A DNA stretch of 64,000 nt from an uncultured Pseudomonadota bacterium (GCA_902785275.1 CACZYB010000005.1:2213-66212), one strand, 5' to 3'; shown: positions 1 through 12,347, counted from the first letter of the stretch. The notes: a model not told the origin generated them from the sequence alone. A program made the numbers and translations.

Positions 1-592
1 GTTTCATTTCAGGATACAATGTATTAACTGTTTTAATTAATATATCAAAATCCTTTACATTTACTCCATCAATATTTTTTTCATAGTCTTCTCTAGCACT
101 TTTTATATTCATATATTTAAATTTTGCAGGTAATGTTAAGACCCCTTTATATTTTAATAAAATTTTTCTTATATTTTCTAAAGTTAACCCACAAAATTCT
201 AAATAATTTTTATCTGGATAAACAATACCTTTTGAAGAATAAGTTTTTTCACCTATACTCAATAAATTGAAATTTTTTCTTTTTAAAATAAAATGTCTTC
301 TATATTGCATTAATCCTATATAATCAGGATTTCCTAACTTATCGTAATTTTTCCAAGCCCAATATAAAGCTGTTAACTCTGAATAATATCTATTTTTACA
401 AGAAATATTATCCCCTGTATTATCTTTTAACATATTATCAAAAAAAGAATCATTTTTATTTATTATGCCATCTTTTGATATATTTTTAGCATCAACCCCA
501 ACTTCTATTGGATAAATAAAATCAGAATCTAATAAAAATGCAGGTTTATGATATGCTACTAAAATTTTTACACTAGGTTGTTTTTTATTCAT
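1..592 (-). CDS. DUF4422-family glycosyltransferase (putative galactofuranosyltransferase), C-terminus cut by the window edge
   Basis: Minus-strand ORF starts at ATG 592-590 (MNKKQPSVKILVAYHKP...). It is a paralog of the 1712-2590 protein (shared GDNIS..NxxYxELTALYW motif). It lies 14 bp downstream of glf in the same operon. Confidence 0.5.
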   Translation of the reverse strand, partial: MNKKQPSVKILVAYHKPAFLLDSDFIYPIEVGVDAKNISKDGIINKNDSFFDNMLKDNTGDNISCKNRYYSELTALYWAWKNYDKLGNPDYIGLMQYRRHFILKRKNFNLLSIGEKTYSSKGIVYPDKNYLEFCGLTLENIRKILLKYKGVLTLPAKFKYMNIKSAREDYEKNIDGVNVKDFDILIKTVNTLYPEMK

Positions 593-606
593 TTTATTTA
601 TCCTCT

Positions 607-1710
607 TTATATTTCCATATTTAATACACGTTCGATTGCTTTATCCATATCGTAATATTTGTAATCCCCAAGACGGCCAAGGAACATTAATTTAGGATCT
701 TTCTTTGCTTCATCCAAATATTTTTGGTATAGAGCTAAATTTTCTTCATTTATTATTGGATAATAACGTTCATTTTTTCCACGAACAAATGCTTCTGGAT
801 ACTCAAATGAAACAATTGTTTTATCCGATTTATCATCCAAGAAATATTTATACTCTCCAATTCTTGTGAATGTATAATTTTCTGGATAATTGATTACAGA
901 ATTTGATTGATAATATTCTTTATCATATTTTTGAAAATCAAGATTGATACTTCTGTATGGAAGTTCACCAAACTTGTAATCAAAATACTCATCTATCGCA
1001 CCAGTATAATAAAGTTTTTCGTATTCAATACTGTTTTTTATATCATTAAATGATGTATTTAGTTTTACTTTTATTAATGGATGATCAAGCATTTTTTCCA
1101 TCATTTTTGTATATCCATTTAAAGGAATACCCTGATATTTGTTTTGGAAATATCTATCGTCACGACTTACATATACAGGAACACGACCTGTAACCAATGG
1201 ATCCAAATCTTCAGGTTTTACGCCCCATTGTTTTAATGTGTAATCAAGGAAAATTCTTTTATAAATATAATCAGCAAGGAAATTTAAATCCTTATCATCA
1301 CACTTTCTTAATTCAAGAATAGGAACCTTTTTACCAAAACCAAATTTTTCAACCAATTTTTGTTGTAATTTTTCAGAAAGACAACTTGGGAAAACCATTT
1401 CCATAGAATTAATATTAAATGGAACCGGAATTTCAATTCCTTCGATAACAGCCTTAACCTTGTGCATATATGGGTGCCACTTTGTAAATTTTGAAAGGAA
1501 ATTCCAAACATCTTTGTTATCAGTATGAAAAATATGTGTACCATACTTATGAACACAAATATTTTCATCATAATAATCATAACAATTTCCACCAATATGA
1601 TCTTTATTATCAATAATTAAAACTTCTTCATTTTTTTCCTCTGCAATACGACGAGCAAGAGTTATACCTGTTATACCACAACCGACAATAATGTTTTTTA
1701 CTTTATCCAT
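607..1710 (-). CDS. glf: UDP-galactopyranose mutase
   Basis: N-terminal FAD Rossmann motif IIVGCGITGITLARR, and full-length similarity to Glf flavoenzymes (367 aa). Confidence 0.85.
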   Translation of the reverse strand: MDKVKNIIVGCGITGITLARRIAEEKNEEVLIIDNKDHIGGNCYDYYDENICVHKYGTHIFHTDNKDVWNFLSKFTKWHPYMHKVKAVIEGIEIPVPFNINSMEMVFPSCLSEKLQQKLVEKFGFGKKVPILELRKCDDKDLNFLADYIYKRIFLDYTLKQWGVKPEDLDPLVTGRVPVYVSRDDRYFQNKYQGIPLNGYTKMMEKMLDHPLIKVKLNTSFNDIKNSIEYEKLYYTGAIDEYFDYKFGELPYRSINLDFQKYDKEYYQSNSVINYPENYTFTRIGEYKYFLDDKSDKTIVSFEYPEAFVRGKNERYYPIINEENLALYQKYLDEAKKDPKLMFLGRLGDYKYYDMDKAIERVLNMEI

Positions 1711-1711
1711 T

Positions 1712-2590
1712 TTATGACCAATACTCCTTTCTATAGCCTAAAAACGTTAATATTTTTCTTTTTATATTTTTTAATTTAAACTTTAAATATTGTTTTAAAT
1801 TTGAATTAATCCAAATAACTGGACAATATTTAATTTTTATATCCGTTGTTTGTAAAAGATATTCCGTATATATGTTGAATAATCTTTCACCAAGATATCC
1901 ATATACTCTTTTTTGAATTACATCTCGTTTTTTAACATCAGACTGAATCTTTTTTTCTACTTCAAACAATATACTAAAAAGCCAATTACAATACCCATCT
2001 ATTATTTGTTTCTTACCAATGAACATATTATACGAATGCATATAGTTTCCATTTAAAACAGCATCAACAGTACTTGACATTTCCGGATATTTATTTTTGA
2101 TAATTGATACAGCTAAATCTAAATCAGAAATTATATGACTTCGTTTATAATGATTATAAAGAGACAATTTTAACCCTGTTTTTTTAGGTAGAATTAAATC
2201 ATAATTTTTCATCAATTTATTAATATTATCTTTATCTATACAATATTTTCTAAGAAAATTTTTTGAAAATTTATGCAACAAAATTTCTTTTGAAGCTACT
2301 TTTTCTCTTAAATCAAAAAATCTTCTATAATGAAACAACCCAACTATATTTGACTTTACATTTTTATACATCCAATACAATGCTGTTAGTTCGTTATAGT
2401 TTTGATTTTTACTTGAAATATTATCACCTATGTCATCACCAATAATATTTAAATCCAAAGAAGAAAGAGCTTTTCCAACTTGAATAGGAAAAAGGATGTC
2501 ATTTTTAAAAAAATCAGAATTTTTGTGATAACAAATAAAAATATTTGTACCTTTAAAATTATTTACTAATTTTTTAAAAATTTTCCCCAT
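1712..2590 (-). CDS. DUF4422-family glycosyltransferase, usually partnered with glf (putative Galf transferase)
   Basis: 292 aa, motif IGDDIGDNISSKNQNYNELTALYWMYKN. Gaps to neighbours are 1-2 bp (operon). Confidence 0.55.
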   Translation of the reverse strand: MGKIFKKLVNNFKGTNIFICYHKNSDFFKNDILFPIQVGKALSSLDLNIIGDDIGDNISSKNQNYNELTALYWMYKNVKSNIVGLFHYRRFFDLREKVASKEILLHKFSKNFLRKYCIDKDNINKLMKNYDLILPKKTGLKLSLYNHYKRSHIISDLDLAVSIIKNKYPEMSSTVDAVLNGNYMHSYNMFIGKKQIIDGYCNWLFSILFEVEKKIQSDVKKRDVIQKRVYGYLGERLFNIYTEYLLQTTDIKIKYCPVIWINSNLKQYLKFKLKNIKRKILTFLGYRKEYWS

Positions 2591-2592
2591 AT

Positions 2593-3159
2593 TTATTTTA
2601 CTTTCAACTTTCTTCTTTTTATAAACATGTGCAAAGTGCCACTATTGACACCAAGCATTTTTGCAATCTCTGTAACTTTTACTCCACAAGAAAGTAATTG
2701 TTTTATTTCTGATTTTTTCTCATCAAGACCAGACTTCCCTGTACCAACAGGTCTTCCCCTAGATTTACCTTGTTTTAACAAATTCTTTTGTATCTGAGCA
2801 TTTTTAAGAGAAAAAATACCCTTATAAACTTTTAAACAAATATCGATATTTCCCATAAAGGAGGATTGTGAAACAGTATCAATTTCTAACTTTTCCTTTA
2901 CAGAATAAATTTTTAATTTACGTTCAGAAAATATCTTTAAAGCCAACATAATATCTTCAAATCTTGAACCGAGTATAGAAACATCGGAAATCATAATGTC
3001 ATTCTTTTTTACGGGACAAGATAAAATATTTTTATCAGTTGGAATTTTTTCAAATTTTATATCAGAAATCCCTAATTTTGTAGCATATCTCAAAATCATC
3101 TCTTTTTGCTCAGCAAGAGATGTGTATATGTTCGATTCTGTAATATACCCAGTAATCAT
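2593..3159 (-). CDS. Small serine-recombinase-family protein (resolvase/invertase fold) with degenerate catalytic motifs plus a C-terminal HTH
   Basis: N-terminus MITGYITESN aligns to GYxRVST but has T at the R8 position. The SRLGR box is replaced by SILGSR. The C-terminal HTH (TEIAKMLGVNSGTLHMFIKRR) is retained. Confidence 0.6.
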   Translation of the reverse strand: MITGYITESNIYTSLAEQKEMILRYATKLGISDIKFEKIPTDKNILSCPVKKNDIMISDVSILGSRFEDIMLALKIFSERKLKIYSVKEKLEIDTVSQSSFMGNIDICLKVYKGIFSLKNAQIQKNLLKQGKSRGRPVGTGKSGLDEKKSEIKQLLSCGVKVTEIAKMLGVNSGTLHMFIKRRKLKVK

Positions 3160-3213
3160 ACTCTTCTAAAACCTTTGTTTTCTGTAACTTTATAGAGATT
3201 TTCTCTCTACATA

Positions 3214-3346
3214 AACCAACGTCTATTTGATACATTTGTTTCAATATAATCCTAATAGGCAGAAAAGTCAATAAAATTCTAGGAATATAATCAAAAAATC
3301 AAGTACTTTCAATACACTCATAACACTATATCAAATAGACGTTGGT
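3214..3346. promoter_or_regulatory. Candidate invertible DNA switch: inverted repeats 3214-3232 and 3329-3346 (18/19 match) flank a roughly 96-bp segment. A third partial copy of the site lies at 3368-3382
   Basis: AACCAACGTCTATTTGATA is seen directly, and TATCAAATAGACGTTGGTC is its reverse complement. The core TAGACGTTGGTCTA is itself palindromic (TAGAC-4-GTCTA). The segment sits between two divergent serine recombinase genes. Confidence 0.5.
3243..3270 (-). promoter_or_regulatory. Sigma70-like promoter inside the invertible segment, currently pointing leftward into the invertase-GT-glf-GT operon
   Basis: Minus-strand reading gives TTGACT (3270-3265), a 17-nt spacer, then TATATT (3248-3243). 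Confidence 0.4.
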
Positions 3347-3466
3347 CTAGATGATATAGTATAACATCTAGACGTTGGTCTAGTTGATATAGTCGATTTT
3401 CATAGCAAAACACTGGCAAATTCTGCTAAATCTTATATCCGTAAAACACAAAAATAGGAGTAAAAA

Positions 3467-4054
3467 ATGATTTATGGATATACCAGAGTTTCAACTGAAC
3501 TACAAAACATCGAAAACCAACATCACGAAATTTTAACATTTGCAAATATGTATAAAATTAAAATAAATCAATGGGTTGATGAAGTAATTTCTTCAAGAAA
3601 ATCATTAAAGGAAAGACGACTTGGTAAACTCTTAAAACATCTCAAAAAAGGAGATATTTTGATTGCTTCGGAACTTTCAAGGCTTGGTAGAAATTTACTT
3701 GAAGTTATGGGAATTTTACAAAGCTGTTTAGAAAAAGGTTGCCAAATTTGGACCTTAAAAGAAAACTATAAACTTGGTGCGGACATTCAATCAAAAGTCC
3801 TTGCATTTGCTTTTTCATTGGCTGCAGAAATCGAACGACAACTTATTTCTCAACGCACAAAAGAGTCACTAAAAAGGGTAAAAGATGAAGGCAAACACCT
3901 TGGCAGACCATTTGGTCATTCATACAAAAAGCTTGCATCTAAACATGATAAAATCAAAGAATTATTGGAAAAAGATGTTTCCAAGACAGAGATTGCAAAA
4001 CTATTAAACTGCTCTTGGATAACTCTTCATCGGTATATACAAAAAGCGTTGTAA
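3467..4054 (+). CDS. Serine recombinase, Hin/Gin/resolvase family (canonical active-site motifs)
   Basis: MIYGYTRVSTELQ, DEVISSRK, GDILIASELSRLGRN, and a C-terminal HTH. There is an RBS, AGGAG, 8 nt upstream. Confidence 0.8.
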   Translation: MIYGYTRVSTELQNIENQHHEILTFANMYKIKINQWVDEVISSRKSLKERRLGKLLKHLKKGDILIASELSRLGRNLLEVMGILQSCLEKGCQIWTLKENYKLGADIQSKVLAFAFSLAAEIERQLISQRTKESLKRVKDEGKHLGRPFGHSYKKLASKHDKIKELLEKDVSKTEIAKLLNCSWITLHRYIQKAL

Positions 4055-4204
4055 AATAACCTTGTCCCCACATGGATACAAGATTGCGACATCATAAAAA
4101 AAGCAAACTCCTAAAACAGTTTTTGCAATATTTTTAAATTGTTATGAGAAGTTTTCACAAAATCCGAATTCTACATTTATATAAATGAAAATGTAGGAGA
4201 AAAA

Positions 4205-4363
4205 ATGACAAGTAGTTTTAATCAATTAAAAGAAATAATTAAATCTCAATATCCCGAGAATTCTTTTTCTGATTTTGAATTAGAAGAAGCAACAAAAAGG
4301 ATTATTCAATTTTTTACCATTGGAGCAAAAATGGTAGAATCTTGCGAAAAAAAATTAAAATAA
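4205..4363 (+). CDS. Hypothetical 52-aa protein (island cargo)
   Basis: AGGAGA RBS sits 6 nt upstream of the ATG. It is not in the ORF track (below 60 aa). No recognisable domain. Confidence 0.25.
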   Translation: MTSSFNQLKEIIKSQYPENSFSDFELEEATKRIIQFFTIGAKMVESCEKKLK

Positions 4364-4421
4364 TCGCTTACAAATCATTTTATTCCCGACATAATATTAA
4401 TTAAAAAAAGGGAGTTTAAAA

Positions 4422-5963
4422 ATGTCATATTCTTATTTAAAGAAAAATATAAAAACACAACCTATGCAAGCTGTATTATTTACAAGAGTTTCATCTAGAG
4501 AACAAGAAAGAGGAGACTCTATTGATGCTCAAATGAAGACGGTTAAAGATTATTGTATTCAACACAATATACCTATAATAAAGGAATATAAAATAACTGA
4601 ATCATCATCACATGGTGAAAGAAAAAAGTTTTATGAAATGATTAAATTCATAAAACAACAAAGTGGTAAAATATTAATTGTTGCAAACACTATTGACCGA
4701 ATTCAAAGAAGATTTAAGGAATATATATATTTAGACGAATTACGTCTTGAAAACAAAATTGAAATGTATTTTGTAAGAGAACATTTAACTATAAATTCAA
4801 AATCAAATAGTTATGAAATAGGAACTTGGACACAGGGTGTAATGTGGGCTCAACAATATGTTTTACAATCAAGTGATAATATTAAACGAGCAAATGAAGA
4901 AAGTCGTAATAAAGGAAGATGGTTACACATGGCTCCAATGGGTTATATGAATTATAGAGATGAAACAGGTTTAGCTATGGTTAAAATAGACCCAATAAAA
5001 GGACCACTTGTTAAAAGAGTTTTGGAAGAATATTCTACTGGAAACTATACATTATCAAGGCTTTTAGTATTTGCAAATAATATAGGATTAACTACAAGAC
5101 AAGGTAAAAAACTCAATTTAAAGACATTAGATAATATGATAAGAAATCCTTTTTATTACGGTATTATGAGAACTATTGATGTATTACGACCTCATACATG
5201 TGGAAATTTAATAAGTAAAGACTTATACGATAAAAACCAAGAAATATTGTCTGGTAAATCTAGGCAATTTTTAACTAAACAAGCAGATACATTCTTATTT
5301 AATGGATTATGCTTTTGTGCAACATGTGGTTGTATGATAAGTCAGGAAAGACATACAAAGAAAAATGGTAAGGCTTATACATATTTAAGATGTTGCCATC
5401 ATAAAGGTAATTGTAATCAACCAATAGTTAATGAAGAAGTAATACTTGACCAGATAAAAACAGAAGTTTTTGATAAATTTAAAGTAAATAACAAAATGCT
5501 TGAATTATTAAAGGCAGAAGTTAAGAAAAACATTGAAAAGGAATATTCTGAAACATTACTTATGAAAACACAGATACAAAAGAAGTTAGACGAAGTAGTA
5601 TATCAAAAGAGTAGGTGTGTTGATTTACTTATAAATAATACGATAGATAAGAAAGTTTATGATATGAAAATGAATGAACTAAACGATAGGGAAGTAAGTA
5701 TGAACTACAAACTAGCTTCTTTTGATACAGTAAATAGTGAGATAAATCAAATAGTTAATGGGGTTATAGATTTCGCAAACAATATGGGTAAATACTTTGA
5801 AAGTTCGGATTTTTCTTTAAAAAAGGAAATTTTACAAATTTTAATTCCGAACTCTTTATTGGATTCAAAAAAGTTAGTATTATCAATAACTAAACCATTC
5901 GATGCTATGCTGAAAAGTAAGGATTATGTAAAGTGGTGCGCCATAGGGGAGTCGAACCTCTAA
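4422..5963 (+). CDS. Large serine recombinase (integrase/transposase type)
   Basis: 513 aa. N-terminal resolvase catalytic domain (AVLFTRVSSREQ), a recombinase domain, then a Cys-rich zinc-ribbon region (CFCATCGC...CCHHKGNC) and a coiled-coil tail. Its 3' end overlaps the tRNA-Arg 3' end. Confidence 0.85.
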   Translation: MSYSYLKKNIKTQPMQAVLFTRVSSREQERGDSIDAQMKTVKDYCIQHNIPIIKEYKITESSSHGERKKFYEMIKFIKQQSGKILIVANTIDRIQRRFKEYIYLDELRLENKIEMYFVREHLTINSKSNSYEIGTWTQGVMWAQQYVLQSSDNIKRANEESRNKGRWLHMAPMGYMNYRDETGLAMVKIDPIKGPLVKRVLEEYSTGNYTLSRLLVFANNIGLTTRQGKKLNLKTLDNMIRNPFYYGIMRTIDVLRPHTCGNLISKDLYDKNQEILSGKSRQFLTKQADTFLFNGLCFCATCGCMISQERHTKKNGKAYTYLRCCHHKGNCNQPIVNEEVILDQIKTEVFDKFKVNNKMLELLKAEVKKNIEKEYSETLLMKTQIQKKLDEVVYQKSRCVDLLINNTIDKKVYDMKMNELNDREVSMNYKLASFDTVNSEINQIVNGVIDFANNMGKYFESSDFSLKKEILQILIPNSLLDSKKLVLSITKPFDAMLKSKDYVKWCAIGESNL

Positions 5964-6012
5964 CCTTCTGATCCGTAGTCAGATACTCTATCCAATTGAG
6001 CTAATGGCGCAA
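5936..6012 (-). tRNA. tRNA-Arg (anticodon ACG)
   Basis: The reverse complement reads GCGCCATTAGCTCAATTGGATAGAGTATCTGACTACGGATCAGAAGGTTAGAGGTTCGACTCCCCTATGGCGCACCA. It has a 7-bp acceptor stem, a GTTCGACTCC T-arm and an anticodon loop CTACGGA. Confidence 0.8.
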
Positions 6013-6136
6013 TTAAGAAAACAGTGCTATTATACACCCAAAAATCTAAATTTCAACAAAAATAATATTTTTCTTGTACGGCTTCAATAAATATGCTAAA
6101 ATTCCCACAGTAATCACATATGGAGAGGAGTTGAAA

Positions 6137-7162
6137 GTGTATAGACAAAATAGACGAATTGGAGGAGGTAAATCCCTTGGAAATTTAGGTAAATTCTTGC
6201 TTTCAGTGGCTTTGATGTCTTCTATTATAATAGGTGAGGGTGCCATAGCAGGAAGAAAAAAATCTTCAAATACTTCTCAATCAAGTAAAAGGTCAGGGTC
6301 CAGTCAAAAATCAAACTCTGTATCAAATAAATCCAGCAAAAGATCCGGTTCAAGTCAAAAGGCAACTTCTGTAAGTTCAACAAAAAGAGCAAATGTAACC
6401 CAAAGGGTTTCTGCTAGAATAAAGAAAATCAGTACCCCGGAAAATAACACAGAAAATTCATCGGAAAATACTTCTAAAACTGCATGCACATATGCTTGTC
6501 CTGTTTGTAAATCTAGTGCATCTGGTGCTAAAAATAGTTTTTCCAAAAAAGATGTGGAGAGTCTTCCTCTTTGTACTAATGGTTTTGAATCAGAATCTTA
6601 TGGTGTGAGTTTCGGAAGTGTTTTCAAAAATAAAACTTTTACATTTAATGAAGATAATTCTTATAAGCTTTCCGATTTAATAAATCTTAATAAAATACCA
6701 GATAATGCATCTTTGAATATTAGATATTCTGTTTGTGGAATGAAATTACTTACAGAAACTGAATTAAATGAACAAAAAAAACATCTTGCTCAAGGAGGTA
6801 GCTTTATGGTTGGCAGGTCTGATTTTATTACCTATGCCTTTGAACAAAATGATAGTAATTTTACCTCATATCATGTTTGTAGAGATATAAAAAGAAGTTC
6901 TGATATTACGATAAAAAAATCAGATTTAGATAAATATTATTTCTATGTTGATGGGGGTGATCCAAGAATGAGTGCGACAGCTTGTCCTAAAGGAAATAAT
7001 GGTATTAGAGGATACTTTTTTTACAATGGAGATGATGATAAACTTATTGATGAATTTGATAATTGGGTAGAGAAAAATACAAAGATTGTAAAAGATGAAG
7101 ATGGAGAAGATGTTGAATTAAGCCCAAATATTGATTTTTCATACGTAAAGTTTGTTAAATAA
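6137..7162 (+). CDS. Hypothetical secreted or membrane-anchored Cys- and Ser-rich protein with tandem SSKRSGSSQK repeats
   Basis: GGAGAGGAG RBS lies 6 nt before GTG 6137 (the longest ORF starts at 6074). There is an N-terminal hydrophobic anchor (LGKFLLSVALMSSIIIG), a low-complexity S/K repeat block and multiple Cys pairs (CTYACPVC, CPKG). Confidence 0.5.
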   Translation: MYRQNRRIGGGKSLGNLGKFLLSVALMSSIIIGEGAIAGRKKSSNTSQSSKRSGSSQKSNSVSNKSSKRSGSSQKATSVSSTKRANVTQRVSARIKKISTPENNTENSSENTSKTACTYACPVCKSSASGAKNSFSKKDVESLPLCTNGFESESYGVSFGSVFKNKTFTFNEDNSYKLSDLINLNKIPDNASLNIRYSVCGMKLLTETELNEQKKHLAQGGSFMVGRSDFITYAFEQNDSNFTSYHVCRDIKRSSDITIKKSDLDKYYFYVDGGDPRMSATACPKGNNGIRGYFFYNGDDDKLIDEFDNWVEKNTKIVKDEDGEDVELSPNIDFSYVKFVK

Positions 7163-8175: not shown

Positions 8176-9117
8176 CTATTTGTTGTGCATAAGCATTGTA
8201 AGTACGTTTGCCAAAGTTTCTTTTAAATCTTTTCTGTGAACAACGATATCAACCATTCCTTGATCCTTTAAATATTCCGCAGTCTGGAATTCAGGAGGAA
8301 GTTTTTGTTTAATTGTTTGTTCAATAACACGTTTTCCAGCAAAACCAATAAGTGCTCCTTTTTCTGCAATATGAATATCTCCAAGCATTGCAAATGATGC
8401 GGAAACACCACCCATTGTTGGGTTTGCAAATATTACGATATAAGGAAGCCCTGCATCGCGAACTTTGTTTATTGCCATAGTTGTTCTTGCCATTTGCATA
8501 AGTGATAACATACTTTCTTGCATTCTTGCACCACCAGAAGCAGGAATTGCAACCAAAGCAGCATTCTTTTTTACAGCCAATTCAGAAGCTTTGATAATTG
8601 CTTCACCAACGTATGTTCCCATACTTCCACCCATAAATTCAAAATTAAAGGCAAAAATAACAGTATCTTGACCACCAACTTTACCATATGCAACAGCAAT
8701 AGCATCATCAGCCTTAGTTGCACTTCTATATTGAGAAAGTCTGTCTTTATACTTTTTTAAATCCTTAAAATTCAATGGATCTTCTTTTACTTTGTTAAGT
8801 TCAACTTTTGTATATTTGCCATCATCAAAAAGACTTTCAAATCTGTCATCAATTTGTAAAAAAAGATGATAGTCACATTTTGTGCAAACATTAAGATGAT
8901 TATGCAAATCTTTTCTATACATCAATGTCCCGCATTTAGGGCATGGAAGCCACATATTTTCAGGAACATCCTTTATTTTTGAAAACATTGTTTTTATTTT
9001 TGGTCGTAAGACACTATTAAGCCAATTCAATTTAAAGCTCCTTTTTCTTTTTAAATGATCTTGTTTTGTTATAAACTTTGTTTGCCAATACCCCAGCAAT
9101 AAATGAAATAAATGCAA
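8176..9117 (-). CDS. accD: Acetyl-CoA carboxylase carboxyltransferase subunit beta. The start is uncertain, probably internal near 9030-8988
   Basis: N-terminal zinc ribbon CPKCGTLMY...CTKCDYH plus a carboxyltransferase domain. The longest ORF overlaps the upstream small membrane gene. Confidence 0.85.
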   Translation of the reverse strand: MHLFHLLLGYWQTKFITKQDHLKRKRSFKLNWLNSVLRPKIKTMFSKIKDVPENMWLPCPKCGTLMYRKDLHNHLNVCTKCDYHLFLQIDDRFESLFDDGKYTKVELNKVKEDPLNFKDLKKYKDRLSQYRSATKADDAIAVAYGKVGGQDTVIFAFNFEFMGGSMGTYVGEAIIKASELAVKKNAALVAIPASGGARMQESMLSLMQMARTTMAINKVRDAGLPYIVIFANPTMGGVSASFAMLGDIHIAEKGALIGFAGKRVIEQTIKQKLPPEFQTAEYLKDQGMVDIVVHRKDLKETLANVLTMLMHNK

Positions 9118-9268
9118 GTATTATTGTATAAAGGTATACAGGCATTTCAATTCCCATTTTTATAGGAAAAACATTAAGTACTACAGGATTCTTATTTTCT
9201 GTTGAAAACAAGAATATTAAGAAAAATAGACCCCCGAGGAAAATCCAGTTTATTAAATATTTTATCAT
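9032..9268 (-). CDS. Small two-TM inner membrane protein (LapA/DUF1049-like)
   Basis: 78 aa with two hydrophobic helices and a basic C-terminus. It sits immediately upstream of accD. Confidence 0.35.
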   Translation of the reverse strand: MIKYLINWIFLGGLFFLIFLFSTENKNPVVLNVFPIKMGIEMPVYLYTIILAFISFIAGVLANKVYNKTRSFKKKKEL

Positions 9269-9278
9269 TTTTTTCTTT

Positions 9279-9563
9279 TTATATCTTGTTATTTATCTTT
9301 TCTGCAAGAAGTTTACCAGCTTTAAACTTTACAGAAACTCTTTCTGGAAGGTTGATTTTTGCGCCACCTTTAGGGTTGCTTGCCATTTTAGGAGCAAGTT
9401 TTTTAGGAGAGAATACCCCAAAACCCCTAAGTTCAATTCTGTGGCCATCAGCCAAAGATGATGAAATTTTATCAGTTAATATATCAACAATCTTTTCAAT
9501 ATCACGAATTAAAAGATTACCTTTTTTTTGATATATAAGTTTTATAATATCACTTCTAGTCAT
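9279..9563 (-). CDS. Nucleoid-associated protein of the HU/IHF family (IHF-like)
   Basis: 94 aa, RIELRGFGVF and the beta-arm motif SVKFKAGK. Confidence 0.85.
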   Translation of the reverse strand: MTRSDIIKLIYQKKGNLLIRDIEKIVDILTDKISSSLADGHRIELRGFGVFSPKKLAPKMASNPKGGAKINLPERVSVKFKAGKLLAEKINNKI

Positions 9564-9633
9564 TTTTTTTCCTAATCTAAGGTTTGTTCATGCAATATTA
9601 AAGCAATTATTTTTAGTTTTTTCAAGTACTTTA

Positions 9634-10722
9634 TTAACCCATCGCACTTTGAACCTGATTTTGCATATCAAATACGCCTAAAAGAACCCATGCAATAACA
9701 CCAGAAACAAGCAAAAGAGCAAAGGAATTCAAAATACCGGCTTCCTTTTTTATATTTGCAATACTTGATTCAAGATATTCTGTTGCAACACCGTTCAAAG
9801 CTTCTTCAAAATTATCAAGTTCTGAATAAATTTCCAAATCACCAATAAGTTCATCTTCTGGGAAATGCATATTACTCTTTTTCAATGCAGTTCCAAGGTT
9901 ATCACCGTTTTTAATAAACATTAATGCTTTATCAATTCTTTCTTTCAAGTAAGGGTTTGCATTCTGACGAAGAGATTGCATAGATCTTGCAATAGGTGTT
10001 CCAGATTCGACCAATGCAGCCAAACTCATAAGCCAAGACACGCCACTGAACATTCTGTAAAGAGACCAAGGTGGCATTTTATCAAATGTTACACGTAGTG
10101 GACCTGTGAAGTTTGAAAATGAAAAATAAATTGCACCTATAACTCCCGCCAAAGCAAGAGGAAATGTCCACCAATAAACTCTAACAAATCCTGATAATGC
10201 CACCAAACTTTTTGCACTTCCTGTCCATTGGGCATTTTTTGCAAATTCCAAAAGAGGAGGAACCATATATATACCAACACCAACAACGATAACCATACTA
10301 AGTATCATCATCATAACAGGGTAAGTAACCGCACTAACCAATGGTTGTATAATTCTGTTTGAACCTTCGGAAACCTTAATAACGTTAATCAACGCTTTTT
10401 CCAACTTTGACACATCACCAACAGAAAGCATCAATTTTTCACGCATAGGAGCCCAACCTTCAATAGCTGATGAGAAAGGAAGACCTTTTTCCAATTCTTT
10501 TGACCAAGCAGCAACAGCAATAGCCATAGGTTCATCAACATTCTGGCCATCTTTTGACTCAATCATCCATATACGATCAAGTGCATCCATCAATGTAAAT
10601 CTGTTTCTTAAAAGCGCAGCCAATTTATAATAAATTTGAAGACGTTTTTCATTGTTCATCAACACCATAATTTGTGAAGCTTTTAATAACAATTCATTCT
10701 TTGGAATCCTTTTTTCAGCCAT
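9634..10722 (-). CDS. Type II secretion / type IV pilus inner-membrane platform protein (GspF/PilC family; TcpE/PilR-like)
   Basis: 362 aa, polytopic, GspF-type fold. It is adjacent to the ATPase. Confidence 0.75.
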   Translation of the reverse strand: MAEKRIPKNELLLKASQIMVLMNNEKRLQIYYKLAALLRNRFTLMDALDRIWMIESKDGQNVDEPMAIAVAAWSKELEKGLPFSSAIEGWAPMREKLMLSVGDVSKLEKALINVIKVSEGSNRIIQPLVSAVTYPVMMMILSMVIVVGVGIYMVPPLLEFAKNAQWTGSAKSLVALSGFVRVYWWTFPLALAGVIGAIYFSFSNFTGPLRVTFDKMPPWSLYRMFSGVSWLMSLAALVESGTPIARSMQSLRQNANPYLKERIDKALMFIKNGDNLGTALKKSNMHFPEDELIGDLEIYSELDNFEEALNGVATEYLESSIANIKKEAGILNSFALLLVSGVIAWVLLGVFDMQNQVQSAMG

Positions 10723-10733
10723 AAATCAACCTC

Positions 10734-12347
10734 CTAGTAAACAGCATCGGTATCAAGCATACCGCACCATCTTTCTACTTCATCAACCGCAATTATACCT
10801 CTAAGCATTTTTCCAATAGCATCTTCCTTAAGAGTTCTTCCACTAAGTTCATTAGTCCAATAATGAACTGCCTCACCTTTACTTCCAGAAACAAGTTTTT
10901 CCAAAAACTTTGCATCAGGAATAATAATTTCTGCAGCAACAATACGACCAACAATACCTTTTTTATTACAAAATGGACAACCAGGTCCCTTTATATAGGA
11001 TTGCTCTATACCATATTTACCCAAAGCTCTTTCCAATCTTGCATATGCAGGATGTTCAGGATGATCCTTGATTGGTTGACGACATTTAGGGCAAAGCTTT
11101 TTGAAAAGTCGTTGAGATAACAATCCACGGATAAGTTCAGGATCCTTTAATTTAAATGCATCAATTCCCATATCCAAAAGTCTGTTAACAATAGCAGGTG
11201 CAGAGTTAGCGTGAAGTGTTGACCAAACATTGTGTCCAGAAAGAGCTGCCTTAAAGGTCAACTCTGCAGAAGAAAGGGTTCTGATTTCTCCGACCATAAT
11301 TGCATCAGGGTCAGAACGAAGAGATGCAGCCAAAGCAAGGTTAAACGCATTTTCCTTTTCTTCTTCTGTTGTCGCATTGGTAACAGGCATTTGTCTTGCA
11401 CCTGGAATAGGGTATTCAGGAGGATCTTCCACTGTTATAAGATTAAGTTCATAATTCTTTTCCTTAAGCATCTTAATCATAACACGCTGTAATGTTGTTG
11501 ATTTACCAGAACCGGTAGGACCAGCGATTATACAAAGTCCTGTTGGAAAAGAACGCATTCTTAAAAGCTTATCATCTTCGTAATCCGAAAATCCTAATTC
11601 TTTTAGGTTATCTGCAGAAGATGTTGAAGAATTTGCATACAAAAGTCGCATAACAAGGTATCTTGTACCGAATGCAATAGGGTTAAACTGAAGTCGAATA
11701 GAAAGCACGTTTTCAGGCAAATATAAATCCTTTTCACCACGAAGAGGTGTACTACCTAATTTCTGTCCGGCCTGGAATTCATTCTGTGCATAGTTTGAAT
11801 CTGAAATATCGGCAGATGCGAAAACAGAACGAACGAAAGCTTCTCCCCAATTTTTATCATATTCAAGAATTGTTTGCATACTACCTGCAATTCTGAACAT
11901 AACAGTAGTATGGTCCGCAACAACAACGTGAATATCGGAAACCCTTTGTTCAGAAGCGCGATAAATAATATCAACGAAATCCTTCTGCATTTGGTTGTTC
12001 GACATTGCGTCTTCTTTTGATACAGTTGAAGTATCTGTTTTTATCGCAGTCGAATAAATGGTATTTAACAAACTCATCGCAACATAAGTTGGTCTGTTAA
12101 TAACACCACCTTTCTTTCTAACCAAAGACTGGAAGCTTAAAACTCTACCATCAAATTTATGAGTGTTAGATACAAGAAATGTTCCATCAGAAAACAATGC
12201 AAGCAAACTTTGTGTATCTGTACCAACAGGAAATTTTCCGTTTGGACCAGATTCTAACTTATTATTATTCGCAAAAAGTTTTGCAGCAGCATCCTTAGGA
12301 TTCATACCTTCATAAGGATTTTCTTGCTCTAATACTTCATCACTCAT
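10734..12347 (-). CDS. Type II/IV secretion assembly ATPase (GspE/PilB family; TcpT/PilQ-like)
   Basis: Walker A GPTGSGKSTT, Asp/His boxes and a C-terminal tetracysteine CPKC...CPFC. Confidence 0.85.
   Translation of the reverse strand: MSDEVLEQENPYEGMNPKDAAAKLFANNNKLESGPNGKFPVGTDTQSLLALFSDGTFLVSNTHKFDGRVLSFQSLVRKKGGVINRPTYVAMSLLNTIYSTAIKTDTSTVSKEDAMSNNQMQKDFVDIIYRASEQRVSDIHVVVADHTTVMFRIAGSMQTILEYDKNWGEAFVRSVFASADISDSNYAQNEFQAGQKLGSTPLRGEKDLYLPENVLSIRLQFNPIAFGTRYLVMRLLYANSSTSSADNLKELGFSDYEDDKLLRMRSFPTGLCIIAGPTGSGKSTTLQRVMIKMLKEKNYELNLITVEDPPEYPIPGARQMPVTNATTEEEKENAFNLALAASLRSDPDAIMVGEIRTLSSAELTFKAALSGHNVWSTLHANSAPAIVNRLLDMGIDAFKLKDPELIRGLLSQRLFKKLCPKCRQPIKDHPEHPAYARLERALGKYGIEQSYIKGPGCPFCNKKGIVGRIVAAEIIIPDAKFLEKLVSGSKGEAVHYWTNELSGRTLKEDAIGKMLRGIIAVDEVERWCGMLDTDAVY

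Follow-up and report, generated by a model that had tools for sequence, protein, structure and literature searches.

A degenerate paralog of an Mpi-type DNA invertase heads a switch-associated glycan locus in an uncultured alphaproteobacterium

Introduction

Phase-variable surface glycans are central to the dealings of gut bacteria with phages and with host immunity, and detailed knowledge of the circuits that control glycan phase variation is almost confined to Bacteroides. In Bacteroides fragilis, the invertase Mpi flips the promoters of capsular-polysaccharide loci (PMC4747536). The capsule operons of Bacteroides, with several glycan loci per genome, are led by the regulators UpxY/UpxZ, which are made from these invertible promoters (PMC11685472). 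These regulators are NusG-like elongation factors and inhibitors acting on RNA polymerase.

Invertases of the Hin/Gin/Cin type are built, in this order, of a catalytic fold, helix E, a GRP arm and a helix-turn-helix (HTH). In serine recombinases, both the dimer and the tetramer interfaces are located on helix E. The resolvase TnpR of Tn3 and gamma-delta represses divergent promoters and binds non-catalytically at res sites II and III, where it helps to assemble regulatory complexes; among small serine recombinases, there is thus already a case of DNA binding in which no catalysis takes place. To our knowledge, such resolvases, moonlighting as repressors, are the closest precedent for a serine recombinase as a stand-alone regulator. 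Descriptions of inactive serine recombinase or Mpi paralogs were not found in the open-access literature that we searched, the coverage of which is incomplete.

Here, we analyze a 64,000-nt stretch of an uncultured pseudomonadotan genome (GCA_902785275.1, CACZYB010000005.1:2213-66212; hereafter, the window). A preliminary description of this sequence had identified, at the head of a switch-controlled operon, a protein resembling a DNA invertase without its catalytic arginines. We compare this protein with the intact invertase beside it, describe the family to which it belongs and the loci in which the family occurs, and consider what the protein may do.

Results

The locus and its host

The features of the locus are collected in Table 1. 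The EF-G, L2 and NusA proteins encoded in the window fall into 90%-identity clusters, the named members of which are uncultured "Alphaproteobacteria bacterium" MAGs; the host is a gut or rumen alphaproteobacterium. The very short gaps between the degenerate, DUF4422 and Glf genes (2 nt and 1 nt) fit co-transcription. On contig L001, the genes 8568-9578 and 9578-10981 of which were mapped back to the window to place the gene truncated by its edge, a GT1 glycosyltransferase gene comes next in the operon.

Table 1. Positions of the features discussed in the text, counted from the first nucleotide of the window.
Feature	Coordinates	Strand	Remarks
Start of the next operon gene (second DUF4422 protein)	1..592	-	runs off the window; mapped from L001
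UDP-galactopyranose mutase (Glf)	607..1710	-	1 nt from the DUF4422 gene
DUF4422 glycosyltransferase-like gene	1712..2590	-	2 nt downstream of the degenerate gene
Degenerate (predicted non-catalytic) Mpi-family invertase paralog, 188 aa	2593..3159	-	first gene of the operon; ATG start
Recombination site A, gene-proximal	3205..3232	.	CTCTACATAAAC-CAAC-GTCTATTTGATA; 3212-3232 is the left arm (21 nt) of the inverted repeat
Invertible segment, 96 nt	3233..3328	-	two sigma-70-like promoters toward the degenerate gene; ON orientation
Promoter-like site TTGACT-17-TATATT	3271 to 3243		faces the degenerate gene
Promoter-like site TTGAAA-17-TATATT	3312 to 3284		faces the degenerate gene
Recombination site B, invertase-proximal dyad	3329..3356	.	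TATCAAATAGAC-GTTG-GTCTAGATGATA; 3329-3349 is the right arm of the inverted repeat
Hix-like dyad site C	3362..3389	.	TAACATCTAGAC-GTTG-GTCTAGTTGATA; direct orientation to B, 33 bp away
Canonical Mpi-family serine DNA invertase, 195 aa	3467..4054	+	every catalytic residue present
Conserved 52-aa ORF in the invertase-integrase interval	4205..4363	+	matches a 58-aa ORF in the corresponding position of L008 (45% identity)
Large serine recombinase (island integrase)	4422..5963	+	3' end overlaps the tRNA gene
tRNA-Arg(ACG)	5934..6010	-	probable site of integration and edge of the island

Loss of the active site

The divergent neighbor scored 104.7 bits on the Pfam Resolvase model and 266.6 bits on the NCBIfam model "master DNA invertase Mpi family", slightly short of the 272-bit cut-off; every canonical residue ascribed to it in the preliminary description is present. 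That description had also taken the 188-aa protein to be a catalytically degenerate paralog of this invertase, and the alignment bears this out. The two proteins were aligned by BLASTP over 193 columns, with 30% identity (E=8e-16). In this alignment, GYITES of the degenerate protein is opposite GYTRVS of the invertase, such that Thr7 stands in place of Arg8 and Ser9 occupies the nucleophile position, and SDVSILGSR is opposite SELSRLGRN, such that Arg68 and Arg71 are replaced by Ile62 and Ser65, respectively. In helix E, the invertase motif AEIERQLISQRT corresponds to LKVYKGIFSLKN, and the Glu and Arg of this helix are absent from the degenerate protein (ERxxISxRT > YKxxFSxKN). In addition to the changes described before, BLASTP and the multiple alignment both placed a deletion of nine residues in the degenerate protein, corresponding to the invertase segment VISSRKSLK, which, by gamma-delta numbering, we take to be the Ser39-Arg45 active-site loop.

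We also considered an alignment offset, in which Arg66, one position past the Arg71 column, would stand in for Arg71. This possibility was rejected because the position is not conserved across 26 family sequences (R in 9, K in 8, other residues in 9); the arginines are truly absent. As for the nucleophilic Ser, its retention holds for the window copy, where it is Ser9; however, it is without significance. The nucleophile column is Ser in only 4 of the 26 family sequences, with K, T, N, G and others in the rest. Arg8, Arg68 and Arg71 are all missing in 111 of 256 collected relatives, and among these the column holds Ser in 7 of 59 aligned residues. Retained recombinase activity, with Ser9 as the nucleophile and Arg66 or other basic residues in place of the lost ones, would account for the Ser or Thr that the window protein and its closest relatives have in the nucleophile column, and for the basic residue that follows LGx in these proteins. 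It is, nevertheless, a very improbable reading, given that Arg8 and Arg68 are absent, the active-site loop is deleted, the acidic and basic residues of helix E are replaced, and neither the Ser column nor the Arg66 column is conserved in the family.

The degenerate protein scored 16.9 bits on Pfam Resolvase (PF00239), below the cut-off of 23.3, and 17.5 bits on HTH_23, the cut-off of which is 24.6. Its sole significant full-length match in NCBIfam was the equivalog model of the Mpi family (NF009949), with 48.2 bits versus the curated cut-off of 272. The sub-threshold Resolvase score notwithstanding, homology is clear from the BLASTP alignment to the neighbor. An AlphaFold2 model, computed with the family alignment as input, had a mean pLDDT of 90.5. 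Besides a beta-alpha-beta core, it contained one long helix at 101-129 and, toward the C-terminus, three helices at 146-182. The top 30 Foldseek matches of this model in the PDB were all small serine recombinases (Tn3/gamma-delta resolvase, Sin and Gin), the best being the complex of Tn3 resolvase with site III (5cy1); a PDB search with the sequence returned weak HTH matches only. The model thus has the catalytic-domain fold, helix E and the C-terminal HTH of small serine recombinases, in agreement with the fold proposed earlier, whereas the catalytic residues are lost and the Pfam score is too low for a member of that class. Judged from its sequence, the protein is best described as a divergent branch of the Mpi/Hin invertases that no longer has what defines a recombinase, namely, the catalytic residues and scores above the curated cut-offs.

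A conserved family of degenerate proteins

A word-indexed search of 5.8 billion proteins returned only four close relatives, which are 66-71% identical to the window protein, have a length of ~188 aa, and carry identical substitutions in intact reading frames. A profile search of 1.84 billion representatives yielded 891 matches, among the best-scoring of which degenerate proteins predominate; the degenerate family comprises more than 100 sequence clusters. Three conserved motifs set its members apart (D[VI]SxLGxxFEDI, KExL and CLKxYKGILSxxNKxIQxNLLKxGKxRGRP), and an HTH ending in TLYxFIK comes after them; the short motif LKxYKGILSxxN and the GRP-HTH are typical of the family. In the 26 family sequences, G64, S117, G131 and G135 are invariant, K113 is found in 23, N120 in 24 and R136-P137 in 22, and the GRP arm is likewise kept in 22. 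A second subclade, known at NCBI as "recombinase family protein" from alphaproteobacterial MAGs, has the motifs IYALxxN and RxHQSLRS. The loop region of degenerate relatives is nine residues shorter than usual (median of 18 versus 27 residues); both subclades have this deletion, which suggests that they share a single origin.

Scanning genome contigs with a profile of the second subclade, we found the family in four alphaproteobacterial MAG species only, and the same scan with the alignment of close relatives gave no match. A search of viral contigs returned no family members; hence, the family is not a phage module. Altogether, the family occurs in uncultured Alphaproteobacteria and other bacteria. 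We also observed five long proteins of up to 957 aa (P0034, P0148, P0075, P0083 and P0157), in which the HTH of the degenerate protein matched 4-12 tandem stretches; these proteins seem to consist of repeated Hin-like HTH domains.

The dN/dS values of the degenerate gene, compared to its orthologs in L095 and L096, are 0.18-0.24, and those in the second subclade are 0.06-0.27. The corresponding values for invertases are 0.04-0.08, with 0.08 for the invertase adjacent to the window gene. Such ratios indicate that the degenerate gene is under purifying selection. This result bears on the possibility, raised in the preliminary description, of a pseudogene: a decaying, functionless copy of the invertase would be expected to show sub-threshold Pfam scores and loss of catalytic residues, as seen here. 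However, the 188-aa frame is intact in relatives of 66-71% identity with dN/dS of about 0.2, the family extends over more than 100 clusters with conserved motifs of its own, and the predicted fold is highly confident. We therefore rejected the pseudogene reading, the chances of which are negligible, on the grounds of dN/dS, intact frames in relatives and family size.

Divergence of helix E and conservation of the DNA-binding part

The degenerate protein and its cognate invertase are identical in 4 of 33 positions of helix E and in 21 of 49 positions (43%) of the arm and HTH, such that the C-terminal domain is the part of the protein nearest to the invertase. Helix E is, at the same time, strongly conserved inside the degenerate family. 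This combination favors a homodimer of its own over mixed oligomers, together with retained DNA binding. It should be noted that the closeness of the C-terminal domains leaves room for DNA targets shared with the invertase. The recognition helices differ in the multiple alignment: invertases have SW[IS]TLHRYI, and degenerate proteins have NSGTLHMFI or CRxTVYNFV. The altered positions presumably are those of the base-contacting Ser174 and Arg178 of Hin.

The low similarity in helix E is also relevant to a dominant-negative role, in which mixed dimers or tetramers with the invertase would poison catalysis. The common fold and the side-by-side position of the two genes are in line with such a role. 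However, the helix that carries the dimer and tetramer interfaces has diverged from that of the invertase while being strongly conserved within the degenerate family, and family members exist without any invertase nearby, so that we consider poisoning of this kind improbable. The same divergence argues against formation of heteromers with the invertase in the manner of recombination directionality factors (RDFs).

The switch between the degenerate gene and the invertase

The 21-nt inverted repeat of sites A and B (95% match) surrounds 96 nt that contain the promoter-like sites, with the invertase gene adjacent; this is the organization of an inverton. The window has three copies of the site, versus zero expected by chance. 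Contigs L095 and L096 have the same switch architecture. In L095, the central four bases are altered on both arms alike (CACC/GGTG, versus CAAC/GTTG in the window), and a paired change of the center is what crossover sites require. In L096, a close relative, only one half of site C is conserved. Site C might be an accessory site, an operator of the invertase gene, or an alternative crossover site giving an inversion of 157 bp. The cores of the inverted repeats in the window (AGACGTTGGT) and in L100 (AAACGTTCGT) seem to resemble the Mpi consensus.

The ON orientation is seen in all five contigs with a switch of the window type, namely, the window itself, L001 and L002, and L095 and L096, which carry orthologs of the switch; OFF copies of the window's own switch were not found among assembled contigs. 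In the Logan sample ERR3275099 (L002, L104), the assembly break coincides with the start codon of the invertase and not with the inverted repeats. Natural inversion was detected at the switch of P0341, a family member 37% identical to the window protein: a 112-nt segment is inverted in L106 and L108 compared to L100, L101, L102 and L107, with the exchange point within an AACGTT core (L106:4800-5003 and L108:4800-5003, from different samples). Thus, switches ahead of family members do flip in nature. In L100, the best promoter-like match is split by the inverted repeat, with the -35 element within the segment and the -10 element outside, and a scan of the L007-type invertible segment for sigma-70 promoters gave no match. 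An apparent inversion between L007 and L008, in which the invertase ORFs are 195 and 253 aa long, was rejected, because the DNA is identical and only the start-codon call differs.

Genomic context of the family

We surveyed the context of the family in 17 distinct loci, of which 15 are informative upstream and 13 downstream. Glycan genes are located within a few bases 3' of the family gene in at least 11 of the 13 informative loci, and include DUF4422/Glf, GT2, GT1, GT8, Stealth, RgpF, DegT and cytidylyltransferase genes. The association of the family with glycan operons is solid. One clear exception is the gene 1649-2233 of L111/L112 (P0343), which is followed by DUF5131 and two O6-methylguanine-DNA methyltransferase-like (MGMT) genes, with no glycan genes.

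The preliminary description had suggested searching other genomes for pairs of canonical and degenerate genes at switches. Such pairs do recur: a canonical invertase adjoins the family gene in 8 of 15 loci (the window, L096, L099, L100-102/L106-108, L109, L007, L011 and L012), mostly in divergent orientation and once on the same strand, and the L100-102/L106-108 switch is the one seen in both orientations. A segment flanked by inverted repeats lies between the invertase and the leader gene in 7 of these 8 loci, and in 5 of those 7 it contains a promoter-like match; here, the central-dyad sites of L007, L011 and L012, and the repeats and promoter of L109, were read by eye. The other seven loci (L003, L017, L019, L020, L097, L105 and L111) have no invertase next door, which suggests that the role of the family is not tied to a local switch. 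Five of them (L003, L017, L019, L020 and L097) have a fixed promoter-like sequence, as read by eye, with no flanking inverted repeats; in L017, L019, L020 and L097 this sequence is just 3' of a terminator-like hairpin. No convincing operator motif shared upstream of the switch-less loci was detected, the only candidate being ATCGTCAwTAA, common to L007 and L017. A genome can have more than one family locus, as in the MAGs RGIG4793 and RUG12396, with two each.

Comparison of L007, L011 and L012 shows how the components are combined. Between L007 and L011, the switch is almost the same and the invertases share 93% identity, whereas the degenerate proteins are only 57% identical and differ in the recognition helix. 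The invertases of L007 and L012 are 98% identical, and an identical 195-aa degenerate protein leads different glycan operons in L011 and L012. Recombination breakpoints are observed on both sides of the degenerate gene in these three loci (4170-5600 of each); the leader gene behaves as a cassette of its own.

These observations, and those on the switch, allow one to evaluate a role as a lock or accessory subunit of the switch, as proposed in the preliminary description. In this role, the protein would be bound at a hix-like site, whether A, B or C. From there, it would either obstruct the invertase, stabilizing the ON state from which it is itself made, or serve as a non-catalytic architectural subunit, comparable to resolvase dimers on res sites II and III. 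The triad of invertase, switch and degenerate gene recurs as a unit in diverged lineages, a third dyad site (C) lies beside B in the window, the arm and HTH are 43% identical to those of the invertase, every window-type contig is ON, and the Tn3/gamma-delta resolvase is already both a repressor and an accessory-site binder. On the other hand, seven loci have no adjacent invertase, with no inverted repeats around the promoter region in those inspected; the recognition helix is altered (NSGTLHMFI versus SWITLHRYI) at what we take to be the base-contacting positions of Hin (S174, R178); in the close relative L096, site C is conserved in one half only; helix E, the oligomerization helix, is 4/33 identical to that of the invertase; and identical switches are combined with degenerate proteins that are only 57% identical. 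On balance, we consider a lock or accessory role a serious alternative, although a rather unlikely one.

Integration at a tRNA gene

The large serine recombinase gene covers the 3' 30 nt of tRNA-Arg(ACG), and the G+C content is 26-28% to the left of this boundary and mostly 31-36% to the right. The overlap of the integrase with the tRNA gene, combined with the drop in G+C content, indicates that the switch and the glycan operon lie on a tRNA-integrated island. From these sequence features, the whole glycan locus looks like cargo of the island, the far end and att repeat of which would be located beyond the window. The distant loci L007 and L012 carry the same module, with a large serine recombinase of 43% identity, the 52/58-aa ORF of 45% identity and an Mpi-like invertase of 75% identity; the switch is present, and the degenerate gene is ~25% identical to that of the window. 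The 52-aa ORF and its L008 counterpart (3932-4108) might encode an excision or directionality factor of the integrase. Just beyond the tRNA boundary, there is a 362-aa Ser/Lys-rich ORF (6074-7162, plus strand) with a TTG start and no Pfam match.

Discussion

The locus shares with the Mpi system an invertible promoter ahead of a glycan locus, and the 195-aa invertase scores close to the Mpi cut-off. One difference lies in the leader gene, the product of which reaches 48 bits versus the required 272 and has no active site. In addition, the hosts are uncultured Alphaproteobacteria, not Bacteroidales, and each locus usually has its own copy of the invertase, whereas Mpi is one global enzyme. Compared to Hin, Gin and Cin, the domain order is the same and the sites in the window are likewise hix-like dyads, the half-sites of which measure 12 bp and are of the TATCAAA type; however, the segment is very short (~124 bp between site centers), no enhancer or Fis requirement was identified for it, and the degenerate protein is devoid of catalytic residues. 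In TnpR, one protein does both jobs, whereas here the non-catalytic job, if it exists, would belong to a separate, diverged paralog.

The position and logic of the degenerate gene are analogous to those of UpxY/UpxZ, although the proteins are unrelated: Pfam and NCBIfam searches with the degenerate protein matched no NusG/KOW or UpxZ domain. A further analogy is with FljA of Salmonella and with orientational control by FimE, where a regulator is made according to how the switch is oriented, and its synthesis signals the ON state in trans; there is no homology to the degenerate protein, however, and FljA acts on fliC expression and is not derived from the recombinase. RDFs of serine integrases are also small accessory proteins that bias a serine recombinase, but known RDFs do not share sequence similarity with their recombinases and work by protein-protein contacts.

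Our analysis shows that the catalytic residues are lost, that the fold is kept, that the gene is under purifying selection, and that it belongs to a family that leads glycan operons, often beside an invertase and a switch of a kind that does invert; DNA binding, dimerization, a regulatory role and its target are inferred. In the reading that we favor, and in which we place about as much confidence as doubt, the degenerate protein is a recombinase copy exapted as a homodimeric DNA-binding regulator without catalysis. It would be the first protein made from the glycan operon and would be directed at promoter or leader DNA. According to this scheme, an Mpi-type serine invertase would have been duplicated, and the copy would have lost the entire active site, retained the GRP minor-groove arm and the HTH, and had its helix E rebuilt into a family-specific, highly conserved helix. 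The product would act as a homodimeric, sequence-specific DNA-binding regulator; in the window, it would be made only while the invertible promoter faces the operon (ON). The DNA bound would be promoter or leader sequence, either at its own locus, at a sister glycan locus or at the invertase gene, and the protein would thereby couple expression of the glycan locus to a trans-acting signal.

A regulator with its own specificity is favored by the changes in the recognition helix, by the switch-less loci and by the mix-and-match of degenerate proteins with identical switches. There are, however, three observations that point in another direction. The triad of invertase, switch and degenerate gene, found in eight loci and moving as a unit on large-serine-recombinase islands, suggests a role connected to the switch; the ON state of all five window-type contigs is also what an ON-stabilizing factor would predict; and the C-terminal domain, as noted above, is closest to that of the invertase.

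A more speculative proposal, which we regard as unlikely, is that the family constitutes a dedicated control layer for Mpi-type switches. In this case, the protein would be made solely by a locus in the ON state. Its targets would be hix-like or leader DNA, both at that locus and at its sisters, and the effect would be to freeze orientations or impose a hierarchy among sister glycan loci of a genome.

Conclusions

A family of degenerate invertase paralogs heading glycan operons has apparently not been described before, and its existence is solid. More than 100 database entries named "recombinase family protein" or "DNA invertase" are almost certainly unable to recombine DNA. The family is compact and confidently folded and has a clear partner DNA, so that a role of a pseudo-recombinase at an inverton is directly testable. 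In an unrelated, uncultured lineage, we find the invertase type of Bacteroides together with a dead invertase copy in the leader position, where Bacteroides has UpxY/UpxZ. If the proposed control layer is real, it would parallel the UpxY/UpxZ circuit at the level of DNA, being made out of a dead recombinase copy, and would travel with the switch on integrative islands.
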